A DNA stretch of 64,000 nt, taken from the NCBI GenBank assembly GCA_963829155.1, contig CAWHIA010000006.1, positions 179,161 to 243,160 on the forward strand, written 5' to 3'. The notes beneath the pieces were generated by a model that saw only the letters and a list, made by a program, of their open reading frames with translations, was not told the DNA's origin and searched no databases. Source of the DNA: an uncultured Chloroflexia bacterium (GTDB lineage Bacteria > Chloroflexota > Limnocylindria > Limnocylindrales > CSP1-4). Made by a program: the position numbers and the translations under genes. Below are positions 14,375-19,998 of the stretch, piece by piece (within the stretch, counting starts at the first letter, position 1; each line of letters starts with the position of its first letter).

Positions 14375-14554
14375 GCCCGAAGGGGCCGGTGGCACCGACG
14401 CCGGGCTGATGAGTGATCATTGGACCGGGTCCCCGGACCGCCGCCACGACGGCCGCAAGGCCGACGAGGTGGCTGGAGCACGGGGCCGCTATGACAAGGC
14501 CGAGCTTGCTCGGCAGTGGCGTGGGCGTGACGGTGCGGTACGGTTCCTTCGGGC
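14375..14554 (+). ncRNA. Candidate 180-nt rod-like ncRNA (element B), 6S RNA-like
   Basis: Closing stem GCCCGAAGGGGCCG/CGGTTCCTTCGGGC, then GCACCG/CGGTGC and ACGCC/GGCGT; central open region with 3'-side hairpin GCCGAG-CTTG-CTCGGC; apical CGGCC-GCAA-GGCCG; -10 TATCGT 7 nt upstream. Confidence 0.55.
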
Positions 14555-14585
14555 GCTTTCGTGTGCGCCGAACACCGGATCCGCC

Positions 14586-15056: not shown

Positions 15057-15099
15057 AATCCGGCCGGTCGCGGCGCCGGGAAAACCTCGTCACAGGTTG

Positions 15100-15136
15100 A
15101 GAGCCGCCCCGCTTGAATTCAGCGGTGCGGCTCTCG
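15100..15136. terminator. Terminator-like hairpin between convergent NUDIX and propeptide transcripts
   Basis: GAGAGCCGCCCCGCT...AGCGGTGCGGCTCTC inverted repeat. Confidence 0.5.
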
Positions 15137-15256
15137 TTCCCCCGTAGGGGCCCGCCGGTCGCCCGTCGGACCGGGGTTCCCGGTACTCCCCCCGCGGTTG
15201 TACCGGGCGTCGCGGATCATACGCGGTCATCTCGCGCTTGTCACGGGTTTATTGAC

Positions 15257-15367
15257 TCAGAGCTTCGGAAACCCGCCGCCGCCGCCGTCGGCGAAGGCGA
15301 TCGCAGCCGTCGCCAGGGTCAGCGCGCTGGCGATCGCGAAGGAAACGGCGAAGCGCAGTCGGCGCAT
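15257..15367 (-). CDS. 36-aa secreted propeptide, candidate signalling-peptide precursor (MRRLRFAVSFAIASALTLATAAIAFA|DGGGGGFPKL)
   Basis: RBS GAGGTGGGAG; basic N-region, hydrophobic H-region, A-F-A signal peptidase I site, 10-aa mature tail; divergent from HTH and HTH-TPR genes. Confidence 0.7.
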   Translation of the reverse strand: MRRLRFAVSFAIASALTLATAAIAFADGGGGGFPKL

Positions 15368-15439
15368 GGCTCCCACCTCGTGGTCCCTGCGGATCGGAGG
15401 TCCGGCCAGGTGGTCGTCCTTGCCTCCGCCGCTCCTGCA

Positions 15440-15480
15440 ATGGTAGGCTCGCCTTCGTGGTGGAGTCAATTATTAGTCAA
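15440..15480. promoter_or_regulatory. Overlapping divergent promoters and AGTCAA direct repeat
   Basis: Minus strand: TTGACT(15469-64)-18nt-TACCAT(15445-40). Plus strand: TAGGCT(15444-49) 7 nt before GTG 15457. AT-rich AGTCAATTATTAGTCAA at 15464-15480. Confidence 0.55.
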
Positions 15481-15759
15481 CACCGGCCCACCCGTCGTCA
15501 GTCGTCCGCGACCACCCCGGAATGGCGGCGGACGCTCGGCGAGGAGCTGCGCCGGCAGCGGCAAGGGCGAGGCCTGTCCCAGGCGGCATTCGGTGCCCCG
15601 TTGACACGGGCCTACGTGTCGGCCGTCGAACGCGGGCGGGCGGTTCCCTCGATCGCCGCGCTCGAGCTCATGCTCAACCGGGCGGGAATCCCCTTGTCGA
15701 CGTTTTTCGCCAGGATCGAGGCGCGAGATGGTCGACCAGGAGTTGACCGGGTCGTATGA
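15457..15759 (+). CDS. Stand-alone XRE-family HTH protein
   Basis: LGEELRRQRQGRGLSQAAFGAPLTRAYVSAVERGRAVPSIAALE; closely resembles the N-terminus of the next gene. Confidence 0.75.
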   Translation: MVESIISQHRPTRRQSSATTPEWRRTLGEELRRQRQGRGLSQAAFGAPLTRAYVSAVERGRAVPSIAALELMLNRAGIPLSTFFARIEARDGRPGVDRVV

Positions 15760-17060
15760 TCCGCGCCATGGACGTCATCGAGACCAGGAAGCGCCGTCGC
15801 GTCGTCGTCGATCATCGTGAGCTCGCCCGCGCGATCGGCGGACGAATCCGCGCGGCCCGCGTCGCCGCGGGGCTGACCCAGCAGGAGCTCGCGGGCGACC
15901 GCTACACGAAGGCGTACGTGAGCGCGCTCGAGCTCGGGCACGCGAAGCCGTCGATGGCCGCGCTCGACTATCTCGCGCCGCGCCTGGGCACGACGTCCGA
16001 CCGCCTGATCGCCGACCACGCCAGTCGGTGGAGCCGACTCGACGCCGACCTCCACCTGGCCTCCGGCCGGCTCGCCGAGGCCGCGGAGGCCTACGAGGAC
16101 CTCGCCGAGCTGGCGACGGACCGCGTCTCCCGCGGCGAGCTGCTGCTGGGCGCGGCCGAGGCCCACTGCAAGCTGCACCAGGCGCAGGCCGCCTCGCCGC
16201 TGCTGATCGAGGCCATTCGCCTGCTCGAAACCGGCGGCCGCCCCGCCGACCAGCAGCGCGCGCAGTACTGGCTCGCCTACGTCCACATGGCACTCGACGA
16301 TCCCGACGAGGCCCGGCGCCTGCTGCAGGCGATGCTCGGGACCGACCCGTCCCTGGTCGAGGACCCGGACTTCGAGGTGCGGGTGCGGATCGCCCTCGCC
16401 CAGCTCGAGACCGAGCACGGCGACCCGGCCCGCGGCGCCCTGTACCTCGAGGAGGCGCGCGATCTCACCGGCAGTCTCGACCTGCGGAAGCGCGGGATCT
16501 ACTTCGACGCCCTGTCCAAGGCCCGCTTCGAGGCCAACGACACGGAGGGCGCGATCCGGGCGGCGACCGAGGCACTCGCGCTGTTCCGCGCCTCCGAGCA
16601 GGAGGTCCAGGAGGCGCAGTTGGAGAACGCGCTCGCGATGTCGTTCGTGCGGCTGGGCAATCTGGGCCGGGCCGACGAGCTCGCGGCGCAGGCCGTCGCG
16701 ATCGCCGAACGGCTCAACCACTTCCAGACCCTCGGCCATTACCTCGACACGCAGGCGACGATCCGGCTGGCCCGCGGCGACGCCGATGGGGCGATCCGGC
16801 TGACCGATCGGGCGCTGGCCCTCGAGGCCGAGCACGGGCCCGCGAACGAGCAGGTCGGCGCCCGGATCACGCGCGCGCAGGCGCTGACGGCGGCGGGCCG
16901 GCTCGACGAGGCCGCCGTGGCGTGGGCCGATGCGGCGGCGGTCGCGCGCGACCTGTCCTCGCCGCTCCGGCGTCGCCGGATCCTGGCGGCGTGGGCCGAG
17001 TCGCTGGCCGCGCAGGGTCGCCACGCCGAGGCGTACGAGGTCATGCGCGAGGCCATCTGA
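15756..17060 (+). CDS. XRE-HTH + TPR transcriptional regulator, RRNPP (NprR/PlcR)-like; start 15756 or 15768
   Basis: IGGRIRAARVAAGLTQQELAGDRYTKAYVSALELGHAKPS, then ~340 aa of TPR-like helical repeats (AQYWLAYVHMALDDPDEA; QLENALAMSFVRLGNLGRADELAAQA). Confidence 0.85.
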   Translation: MIRAMDVIETRKRRRVVVDHRELARAIGGRIRAARVAAGLTQQELAGDRYTKAYVSALELGHAKPSMAALDYLAPRLGTTSDRLIADHASRWSRLDADLHLASGRLAEAAEAYEDLAELATDRVSRGELLLGAAEAHCKLHQAQAASPLLIEAIRLLETGGRPADQQRAQYWLAYVHMALDDPDEARRLLQAMLGTDPSLVEDPDFEVRVRIALAQLETEHGDPARGALYLEEARDLTGSLDLRKRGIYFDALSKARFEANDTEGAIRAATEALALFRASEQEVQEAQLENALAMSFVRLGNLGRADELAAQAVAIAERLNHFQTLGHYLDTQATIRLARGDADGAIRLTDRALALEAEHGPANEQVGARITRAQALTAAGRLDEAAVAWADAAAVARDLSSPLRRRRILAAWAESLAAQGRHAEAYEVMREAI

Positions 17061-17225: not shown

Positions 17226-19998
17226 ATGACCACCCCCTCCCCGGCCCCGGCGCGACCCGGCAGGCCGCGCCCACGGCGTCGCGGGATCGGTCCCGCGGCC
17301 ACGATGGGACTGGTCCTGTTCGGCGTCCTCGTGGTCGGCGGCCTCGTCGGTGCCGGCGTCGCCCTCGCGACCTACGCATCGATCAGCCAGCGACCTGCCG
17401 CCACCGACGGAAGCTGGAGGAGATCCAGCTGCCCGAGCAGTCGGTCGATCTACGACCGGACCGGCCAGGTCGAGCTGGCCCGGTTCGGCGAGTTCAACCG
17501 CGACGTCGTGACCTTCGACCAGATCCCGCCGGTGCTGGTCGACGCCACCACGGCCGTCGAGGACGGCACGTTCTGGGACAACGCGGGCTTCGACACGATC
17601 GGCATCATCGCGGCCGGCATCGATTCCCTCCGCGGCGCGCCGCGCGGCGCCTCGACCATCACCCAGCAGCTGGTCCGCCAGCGGCTGCTCACCGAGAACG
17701 GCACGGCGCAGACGGACCTGTCGGCGACCCGCAAGCTGCGCGAGATCATCCAGTCGATCCGCGTCACCGAGGCCTACCACGGCGTCGAGGGCAAGCAGCG
17801 GATCATGGCCGCCTACCTCAACCAGAACTACTACGGCAACGAGTCGTACGGCGTCGCCGCAGCCGCGAAGGGCTACTTCGGCATCGACGAGGCGCACCTC
17901 AAGACGGACCTGACGCTCGCGCAGGCGGCGATCATCGCGGCGCTGCCCAAGTCCCCGTCGTCGTACGACCTCGTGCAGAACGCCATCATCGAATGCCTCG
18001 ACCCCGGGGCCGAGACGTCGGACGCCGAGACCTGCACCAAGTCCCAGCTGGTGGTCCCGCCCGACGCGCCGATCGTGCTGCGCCGCAACCTGGTGCTCGA
18101 CCTGATGGAGAAGGGCCGCACGCCGCTGACCGGGGGCGAGTTCACGGCGGCCGACTTCGACGCCGCACGCGCGGCGCCGGTGGTGCTCGTGGCGCAGGTC
18201 GTCCAACCAGTGGAAGGCGCCCCAGTTCGTGTGGCAGGTCCGCAAGGAGCTGACGACGAAGCTGTGCGGTCCCGACGCCGAGACCTGCGACCAGATCGAG
18301 GCCGGCGGCCTGTCGGTGACGACGACGCTGGACATGCGCCTCCAGGACGTCGCCGAGAAGTGGGTCAAGGCGGCGACGGTCGTCCCCAACTCGAAGAACC
18401 CGCGGGTCACGGCCAAGGCGCTCGGCCTCCCCTACCAGCGCTGGATGGACAGCCTGCGCAGCCACGACCTCCACAACGGGGCGCTCGTCGCGATGGACTA
18501 CGAGACGGGCGACGTCGTCGCGTACATCGGCTCGGCGGACCCGAACGGCCAGAAGGCGACGAAGAAGTTCCAGCCCCGGTTCGACGTCCTCGCCAACGGC
18601 TGGCGCCAGCCGGGTTCGGCGTTCAAGCCCGTCGTGTACTCCACGGGCATCGCGAACAAGAGCATCACGGCGGCGTCGATGTTCATGGATGTCGTCACCA
18701 ACTTCGGCGGCGGCTATACGCCGACCGACGCGGACAACCTCGAGCGCGGGCCCGTCCGGATGCGCGACGCCCTCAGCTTCTCGCTGAACATCCCGGCCGT
18801 GAAGGCCGGCACCGTGATCGGCAACGACGCGATCCAGGCGCAGGCAGAGGCGATGGGAATCCAGTTCCAGAATGCGCGCGTCGACGCAGGCGCCGCGTTC
18901 CCCCTCGGGGTCGAAGTCGTGCACCCGCTCGACCTGGTCCGCGCGTACGGCACCATCGGCGACCGGGGCCGGCTCGTGGAGCAGACCACGATCCGCACGG
19001 TCACCGACAACACCGGCACCGTCGTGATCGAAGAGAGCCAGCGCCCCAAGCCGGCCGACGCGCTCGACCCGGGCGCGGCCTACATCATGACCGACATCCT
19101 CGCGGGCAACACGAACCCGCGGAAGAACCCGTTCTGGGGCCAGTTCGCGATCAGCGACGGCGGCGTGCGCCGCCCGGCCACCCTCAAGACCGGCACCAGC
19201 AACGAGGCTCGCGACCTCAACGCCTACGGCTTCATCGCCGCCCCCGACGACCGCGGCCGCAAGGACGACGAGTACGCGCTGGTCGTCGGCGCGTGGAACG
19301 GCAACTCCGACAACTCGCTGGTCAGCGGCCGGGGGGGGCCGCTGTTCTCGATCGACGTCACCACGTACGTGTGGCAGGGCTTCATGGAGGAGGCCACCAA
19401 GGGCTGGAAGATCAACGCCTTCAAGGCGCCCAACAACCTCGAGCGCGCGTCGGTCGACCCATGGACGGGGCTCGCGTCGTCGAGCCGCAACGCCGTCGTC
19501 GAGCTGTTCCTGCCGGGCACCGCTCCCAAAGGCGTCCTCCCCCCGGAGGCGCGCTGCGGCGAGGCGGTCCTGACCAACGCCGGGTTCGAGGACGAGCACG
19601 CGTCGTGGATGGCCGCCAACCAGGGGTGGCTGGCTCGGGCCCGACGCGGCCCGGGCAGGATCGGCGGGCCGGAGAACACTGCGACCGCGTACTTCTACAA
19701 CCCGGTGTTCAACCCGTACGGCCGGTCGTGGGGACCGCTGCTGGATGACGCGGGCTGCAAGCCGGCCGAGAGCCCGTCCCCGTCCATCGACCCGTGCGCC
19801 TCGATCGTGGGCGTCATCGACCCGTCGGCCGAACCCGTGGTCTGCCCGTCGCCCTCCGAGTCGACCGCGCCGACCCAGGCGCCGACCGAGCCGCCCACGG
19901 AGGCGCCCACCGAGCCGCCGACGCCCGAGCCGACCCCGGAGCCGACGCCCGAGCCCACCCCAGCCGAGCCGTCCCCCGCCGAGCCCGCCGCGTCCTAG
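17226..19998 (+). CDS. Class A penicillin-binding protein (transglycosylase-transpeptidase), frameshift ~18200
   Basis: TM anchor; AVEDGTFW, GASTITQQL, RKLREI, YLNQNYYGN; QPGSAFKP, SLN, KTGT; Pro/Thr/Glu tail. Confidence 0.92.
19868..19990 (+). repeat. Degenerate 12-bp tandem repeat encoding a PTEP/PTPE tail
   Basis: APTQAPTEPPTEAPTEPPTPEPTPEPTPEPTPAEPSPAEP. Confidence 0.7.

Follow-up and report, generated by a model that had tools for sequence, protein, structure and literature searches.

A sensor-less XRE-type HTH gene within an RRNPP-like receptor and peptide cassette of Limnocylindria

The window, by which we mean the whole 64,000-nucleotide stretch of DNA analysed here, carries a gene cassette (Table 1). 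A plus-strand ORF with a GTG start, 100 aa as assembled and containing LSQAAFGAPLTRAYVSAVERGRAVPSIAALE, lies between a divergent 36-codon ORF and the ORF of an HTH-TPR protein, called at 15756-17060 (434 aa). The small ORF scores above the Pfam cut-off for both HTH_31 and HTH_3, while a scan of NCBIfam gave no family above cut-off. Its AF2 model (pLDDT 85) has helices at residues 21-37, 42-46, 51-58, 66-75 and 80-88; residues 1-12 are disordered and the tail past helix 5 is not conserved. Pfam, AF2 and Foldseek agree on the five-helix domain of XRE (Cro/CI-type) HTH proteins, matching HTH_3/HTH_31. The top Foldseek match, C.BclI (TM 0.72, rmsd 1.3), is a generic XRE likeness. The fold and the conserved helix 3 would predict sequence-specific DNA binding. 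The small ORF is a stand-alone XRE HTH protein, a genuine gene with no sensor domain.

Table 1. Genes, predicted promoters, candidate operators and other features of the cassette, in window coordinates
Feature	Position	Strand	Remarks
Structured putative small RNA	15085..15208	-	3' of third promoter; fold z -4.55
Third promoter GTGACA-17-TATGAT	15244-15216	-	predicted to drive the putative small RNA
O3 candidate operator GTCACGGGTTTATTGAC	15240..15256		on -35 of third promoter
36-aa propeptide-like gene	15257..15367	-	basic N-terminus, hydrophobic core, A-F-A, tail DGGGGGFPKL
Predicted peptide promoter TTGACT-18-TACCAT	15440..15469	-	-35 inside small-gene codons 3-5
Predicted small-gene -10 box TAGGCT	15444..15449	+	overlaps peptide -10 on opposite strand; conserved in relatives
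Small XRE HTH-only gene	15457..15759	+	100 aa as assembled; GTG 7 nt past -10 box
Probable true extent of small gene	15457-15820	+	120 aa once extra base removed
O1 candidate operator GTCAATTATTAGTCAAC	15465..15481		small gene +9..+25; peptide promoter about -48..-32
Five-helix XRE domain	15517..15720	+	residues 21-88 of small protein
Extra base (about 15723)	15723..15725	+	shifts tail frame, creates TGA 15757-15759
O2 candidate operator GTCGACCAGGAGTTGAC	15731..15747		small-gene tail; receptor promoter -37..-21
Predicted receptor -10 box TATGAT	15755..15760	+	includes ATG 15756, i.e. the 'ATGA' overlap
HTH-TPR receptor-like regulator	15768..17060	+	430 aa from likely leaderless ATG

Restriction-modification controller (C) proteins such as C.BclI, C.AhdI and C.Esp1396I have the same five-helix fold, small size and leaderless-type start, and a gene that overlaps the next one (PMC2632904). 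Here, unlike there, the next gene encodes a TPR regulator and not a nuclease, and the link between helices 2 and 3 is two residues shorter. The receptor, rather than a restriction endonuclease, is downstream in 38/38 loci, and the conserved site lies within the transcript, not upstream of the gene's own start. Identity as a restriction-modification C protein was rejected on this gene context.

The HTH-TPR protein carries TPR_MalT, TPR_2, TPR_12 and TPR_14 above their Pfam cut-offs. ComR is its sole PDB sequence match (E 0.004), and PlcR is among its fold-search matches. The divergent ORF has a basic-hydrophobic-AxA pattern that, by an ad hoc rule, would suggest Sec export, and similar propeptide ORFs occur in 59/62 three-gene loci and 20/26 two-gene loci, as against 30/471 in the control. 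Both lengths fall within the RRNPP ranges (propeptide 36 aa for 10-100 aa, receptor 430-434 aa for 250-500 aa). Direct adjacency of propeptide and receptor is found in 20/26 two-gene relatives and fails in the window because the small gene sits in between. The first-pass annotation had called this gene a third component outside the two-gene RRNPP definition, and so it is. RRNPP signalling has been described for Bacillota (PMC10075063). The cassette resembles the RRNPP(A) systems of that phylum (PlcR-PapR, ComR-ComS, Rgg-SHP, NprR-NprX) in its 430-aa HTH+TPR protein beside a short signal-peptide-like ORF, in a candidate operator at the peptide promoter -35, and in the ComR and PlcR matches. It differs in its Chloroflexota host, in the HTH-only gene between peptide and receptor, and in that export and sensing are predicted. 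The divergent ORF is a likely secreted-peptide gene, and the HTH-TPR protein would be the receptor of its product.

The putative small RNA beyond the peptide gene forms hairpins with purine-rich loops and is kept in close relatives; Rfam gave no match for it, or elsewhere in that search. It is a likely output of the cassette. In four two-gene cassettes (L049, L068, L071, L089) an operator-like site and a -10 box lie directly 3' of the receptor. The conserved hairpin that comes next, GCGGCCGGC...CTACTGGGAGCGC...GCCGGCCGC, would be another kind of putative small RNA, different from the first. Elsewhere in the window, at 14440-14560, an element ending in GGTTCCTTCGGGCGYTTTCGTGTG, with GATCGTTCGGTCTGCCCGAAGGGG-like text ahead, precedes a NUDIX gene. 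The same GGTTCCTTCGGGCGYTTTCGTGTG-ending element stands beside the peptide gene in L003 and L018 and is possibly another small RNA.

The search for sigma-70-like promoters gave three, against an expectation of 0.0. The cassette also has three copies (O1, O2 and O3) of a 17-bp GTCAA-N7-TTGAC-like site. These rank 1, 2 and 7 of 132 matches when the 3.4-Mb genome is scanned with a matrix built from close relatives, a procedure that is partly circular; the other matches lie mostly in apparent coding DNA. An operator had been expected within 15430-15490, and candidate O1 falls inside that interval. Third codon positions in O1 are near-invariant (GC3 4% vs 86% in the core of the gene), which points to conservation at the DNA level; the N-terminal 'SSI' of the small protein is therefore a read-through of the site. 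O1 is non-coding in two-gene cassettes, and an O1-like site is present in 11/26 loci without the small gene. O2 is at most two mismatches from a palindrome in 34/63 three-gene and 11/22 two-gene loci (random windows about 1%), is placed 6-8 nt ahead of the receptor -10, and has counterparts ahead of 8/9 checked receptors of a sister family (f4). Since O1 and O2 persist without the small gene, the sites are best assigned to the receptor, which would bind all three. O1 has its end on the -35 box of the peptide promoter and O3 on that of the small-RNA promoter, an activator-type position, while O2 before the receptor and O1 within the small-gene transcript are at repressor-type positions. Upstream of the small-gene start the -10 box alone is conserved.

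Two side observations concern similar sites. In genus relatives (L119-L130) an unrelated XRE regulator of ~185 aa has, in several genomes, a GGCAA-N7-TTGCC palindrome upstream; its geometry is that of the cassette site, and cross-talk is possible. Beyond the peptide gene of L012-L014 and L015 are ORFs whose motifs resemble those of cyclic-di-GMP proteins, EAL in L013 and L014 and HD-GYP in L015; an O1-like site lies over a likely -10 in L012-L014, a possible regulated output.

The extra base in the small-gene tail is absent from 6/8 aligned relatives, the other two having indels of their own (L033) or a deletion at that place (L030), and it is likewise missing from 5/5 of the spanning read-derived contigs for which an indel is listed at this point (X1, X20, X5, X7, X9). 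Without it the small ORF has 120 aa and ends at 15820; its eight closest database homologues have 120-121 aa. An assembly error is likely because the adjoining transglycosylase gene is also broken across frames, a private variant being the alternative. This penicillin-binding protein gene (window 17226-19998) runs through several frames, consistent with assembly indel errors. The overlap of the small-gene TGA with a receptor ATG, pointed out in the first-pass annotation, is present at ATG 15756 as assembled, but it is caused by the extra base and does not characterise the system. Translational coupling via the ATGA overlap was rejected, the extra base being absent from relatives and read-derived contigs. 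Among loci the small-gene stop lies as early as 40 nt ahead of the receptor start and as late as about 310 nt past it. A -10 box with an in-frame ATG/GTG 5-9 nt further on occurs in 88/94 receptor loci, so leaderless translation from ATG 15768 is the most likely start as judged from the alignments; these boxes are mostly TACACT, with no internal ATG. The relative frame of small gene and receptor is conserved in 72/83 loci, which mostly reflects a fixed spacing of 154 nt (52/80 loci with a called start).

The small protein and the receptor HTH share 31/86 identities (36%; pairwise E 2e-9). A single-sequence tblastn of the genome put another XRE protein (40.4 bits) level with the receptor (40.0), whereas the small-family profile gave the receptor 56.3 bits and other XREs at most 38.1. 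A close match to the receptor HTH had been claimed; the receptor is indeed the nearest relative by family profile, but 'close' overstates a 36% identity and a tblastn tie. Across the genus genomes the profile scores at least 91 for the small family, 59-75 for adjacent receptors and at most 53 for all else. In a wider comparison receptors have a median of 63.5 bits (n=91), other HTH-TPR proteins reach at most 57.9 and XRE-cupins at most 52.2, and three multi-HTH proteins attain 60-63; in a search of 1.84 billion proteins, multi-HTH proteins dominated through summed scores. By profile score the receptor is thus nearest outside the small family. In the reverse search the order changes: the receptor profile gives a median of 59.7 for other HTH-TPRs and 46.9 for the small family. 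In an HTH tree (69 rows, 58 columns) the receptors join four other HTH-TPRs (95/83) and the small proteins fall outside, none paired with its own receptor; a joint clade of small proteins and receptors was not rejected (p-AU 0.445, with 9 long-branch rows dropped). HTH identity is 41.7% to the own receptor and 42.1% to those of others, the own one being closer in 23/57. Recent duplication locus by locus was rejected on this comparison and the tree. An old paralogy is plausible from these alignments; the small gene would probably go back to a single old partial duplication, in the lineage ancestral to the window's family, that copied the 5' end of a receptor gene, and repeated losses followed.

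To survey the cassette we collected 100 receptor loci, 20 from one search and the 80 top-ranked among 464 from another, a set biased to close relatives; those placed belong to Chloroflexota, Limnocylindria. Of the 94 distinct loci, 63 have a tandem small gene (with single-base indels in L022 and L024), one has a small gene broken by an indel, three are rearranged, 26 are without it and one is too short for a call, 'without' meaning not found in the fetched flank of what are draft genomes. In the rearranged loci peptide gene and small gene have both moved to the downstream side of the receptor; the small gene is intact in one, broken in another and truncated where the contig stops in the third. 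It thus keeps its place beside the peptide promoter and O1 rather than beside the receptor. Among 41 genus genomes the small-gene profile found 17 copies in 16 genomes, 17/17 immediately ahead of a receptor; a single genome has the receptor alone and 24 have neither. Among 201 class genomes it found 24 copies, 24/24 followed by the receptor, 23 in the window's family and one in f4, and among 301 phylum genomes the small family is confined to the window's family. Weaker matches in the receptor range counted 79/79 in f4, 38/38 in f3, 1/1 in f5 and 0/10 in f2; the f4 tally takes in unpublished genomes G156, G188, G226 and G237, and that of f25 takes in G491. Nine f4 loci were checked and have full receptors with no small gene upstream. 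Six checked f25 matches were rejected as receptor relatives, being a different HTH-TPR. Another Chloroflexota family (L161, L164, L165, L167-L169) has a distinct, highly conserved HTH-TPR regulator with the helix FSISYISAIE, found in 23/24 of its genomes.

The receptor thus spans the class while the small gene is nearly limited to one Limnocylindria family, and being older and wider the receptor makes the small gene a likely later addition. A FastTree of 92 receptors implies 12 or more changes in small-gene presence. Its distances follow those of the receptor (Mantel rho 0.44, 0/999) and the nearest neighbour is shared in 41/57; the small gene is co-inherited with the receptor. The synteny survey that had been proposed came out divided: each of the 38 distinct copies from the unbiased genome searches is directly upstream of a receptor, yet the intact gene is missing from the 26/94 receptor loci where it is absent or decayed, which makes it accessory and dispensable. 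No receptor relative that would indicate phage origin was found in viral_contigs (45 pattern matches, 0 confirmed). Fusion of small gene and receptor was rejected as well, P0139 and P0077 looking like frameshifted read-throughs; a search of longer proteins for fusions, of limited sensitivity, yielded nothing beyond copies over-called at the N-terminus, XRE-cupins and other HTH-TPRs. Three loci (L005 in G030, L025, L028) have an intact receptor, a peptide gene seemingly damaged or not found and a small gene deleted or missing, and are possible 'listener-only' or signal-deaf loci.

Both ends of the small ORF are operator or promoter DNA, and L004 and L005 have internal deletions of the gene that retain both flanking sites. 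These loci and the repeated presence changes would suit a decaying duplicate whose protein is incidental, kept for its operators and promoters or for transcriptional interference with the peptide promoter. Codon-level evidence makes this very improbable. In a 57-codon core, which leaves out O1 and O2, dN/dS is 0.052 (0.040-0.064) over 21 close, disjoint, hand-picked pairs (1197 codons), with differences by codon position of 170/86/459. The first-pass annotation had proposed dN/dS as a check on the small ORF, and this value is strongly in the purifying range; over 20 pairs the receptor gives 0.023 for its HTH and 0.047 for its TPR part. Four other frames of the core give 1.6-9.6; in the antisense frame with common third positions the value is 0.125, and 25/42 sequences have stops there. 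In about 57/61 loci an ATG/GTG stands 9 nt ahead of the O1 core, a few nt past a TAGNNT box; as read from these alignments the small ORF has a conserved start of leaderless type. One RNA-library contig spans 15494-15750 (3 differences) and two span 15211-15365, at depth 2-4; we do not count them as evidence because DNA carry-over is possible. What the first-pass annotation had described as a sensor-less HTH partner is borne out as a conserved, selected, HTH-only gene whose nearest relative by profile is the receptor HTH.

The recognition helix is P-[LMF]-[TS]-[RK]-[AGS]-[FY]-[VI]-S-[ASQ]-[VL]-E in the small proteins and R-Y-T-K-A-Y-[VI]-S-A-L-E in the receptors, with a common T-R/K-A-Y/F-V-S core. 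Flanking it, receptors have R before and K/R after in 90/90 each, an invariance that comes in part from the search patterns, as variants are seen in wider-genome loci; small proteins have P (56/57) and V/L/I/M (56/57) at these positions. The helix positions of the small protein drift faster than the receptor HTH, and together with the flank differences this indicates that specificity may have diverged. A profile alignment places the small-protein helix on that of C.BclI. In C.Esp1396I R35, T36 and Y37 contact DNA, and base binding is chiefly by R35, T36 and R46 (PMC4041747); if the numbering transfers, the small-protein helix would correspond to this DNA-contact helix. The loop equivalent to R46 reads K/R-P-S-M in the receptor and G-R-x-[VL]-P-S in the small protein. 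From these residues, overlapping but not identical specificities are a fair expectation. Co-variation of helix and operator could be compared in 2 independent pairs only (p 0.5-1).

The fixed differences round the recognition helix, its faster drift, the place of O1 inside the small-gene transcript and a tree that does not group the small protein with receptors would fit a downstream output regulator, switched by the receptor via O1 and controlling genes elsewhere through a DNA specificity of its own. We regard this as somewhat unlikely, given that the small gene was never found away from the cassette, that its core base-reading motif is still receptor-like and that no second conserved motif lies near its promoter.

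HTH-TPR receptors mostly dimerise through their TPR part, and the small protein is without any TPR part. This speaks against contact between the two proteins, whether as a poisoned heterodimer or anti-activator or as a repressor pulled off DNA by the receptor TPR until the peptide blocks it. Tight linkage and co-inheritance would suit such contact, as would an invariant P-S and hydrophobic positions in helices 4-5 that could form an interface. The Rap/Phr/Rco system of pLS20 provides a known three-part logic of TPR receptor, peptide and separate repressor (PMC7641744). There, however, Rap binds no DNA and acts on Rco, whereas the receptor here has its own highly conserved HTH, resembling the small protein, and is present without the small gene in the loci counted above, those of the sister family included. 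A complex prediction of the receptor (A3) with the small HTH (A2) gave a score of 0.01 (mark 0.32) and counts for neither side. On balance we consider protein contact quite unlikely.

We lean, short of even confidence, towards a small protein that is a peptide-blind repressor, predicted to be a homodimer, competing with the receptor at the GTCAA-N7-TTGAC-like sites and so setting the threshold of the feedback. In favour of this reading are the purifying selection, the linkage to and co-inheritance with the receptor, the retained recognition-helix core, the rearranged loci and a fold that matches homodimeric controller proteins; the divergent helix flanks, the tree and the loci without an intact small gene weigh against it. 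While peptide is scarce, the small protein, whose promoter overlaps that of the peptide gene, would occupy O1 and O3 and hold the peptide and small-RNA promoters off. Peptide-bound receptor would then displace it, turn on peptide and RNA, and shut the small gene. The net logic would be a Cro/CI-like or Rgg3/Rgg2-like switch over a likely positive-feedback loop. In Streptococcus pyogenes Rgg2 and Rgg3 are proposed to compete at sites near the -35 of peptide promoters, which would prevent premature induction (PMC3509411); these too are two related regulators with shared sites, but both are full-length and peptide-responsive, and in our cassette the competition is a prediction.

A stronger form of the competing-repressor reading, which we think unlikely, is a Cro/CI-like bistable switch built from a truncated receptor copy by one gain and at least 12 losses, turning a graded response into an all-or-none one. 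The sensor-less copy would begin and end in two competed operators, head-to-head with the peptide gene. In lambda, Cro is small and consists of an HTH only, while CI is a larger HTH protein that senses; their recognition helices are related, and an operator lies between overlapping divergent promoters; the cassette differs in being chromosomal, with tandem genes and a likely exported peptide as signal in place of RecA cleavage.

A literature search on RRNPP in Chloroflexi/Chloroflexota and on quorum sensing in Limnocylindria found no description, most subscription papers being outside its scope. Its listings showed no HTH-only receptor paralogue, and RRNPP_detector tables may list such loci.

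The XRE regulator in the window is thus real and accessory, has no sensor and belongs to an RRNPP-like Limnocylindria cassette; its mechanism we infer. The cassette is a class-wide RRNPP look-alike in uncultured soil Chloroflexota, and its two- and three-gene versions have their candidate operators in common. These versions form a natural comparison of what the addition of a DNA-binding protein without a sensor does to a peptide feedback loop, and since the proteins, the short peptide and the three 17-bp sites are all defined, it is testable in vitro or in a heterologous reporter.
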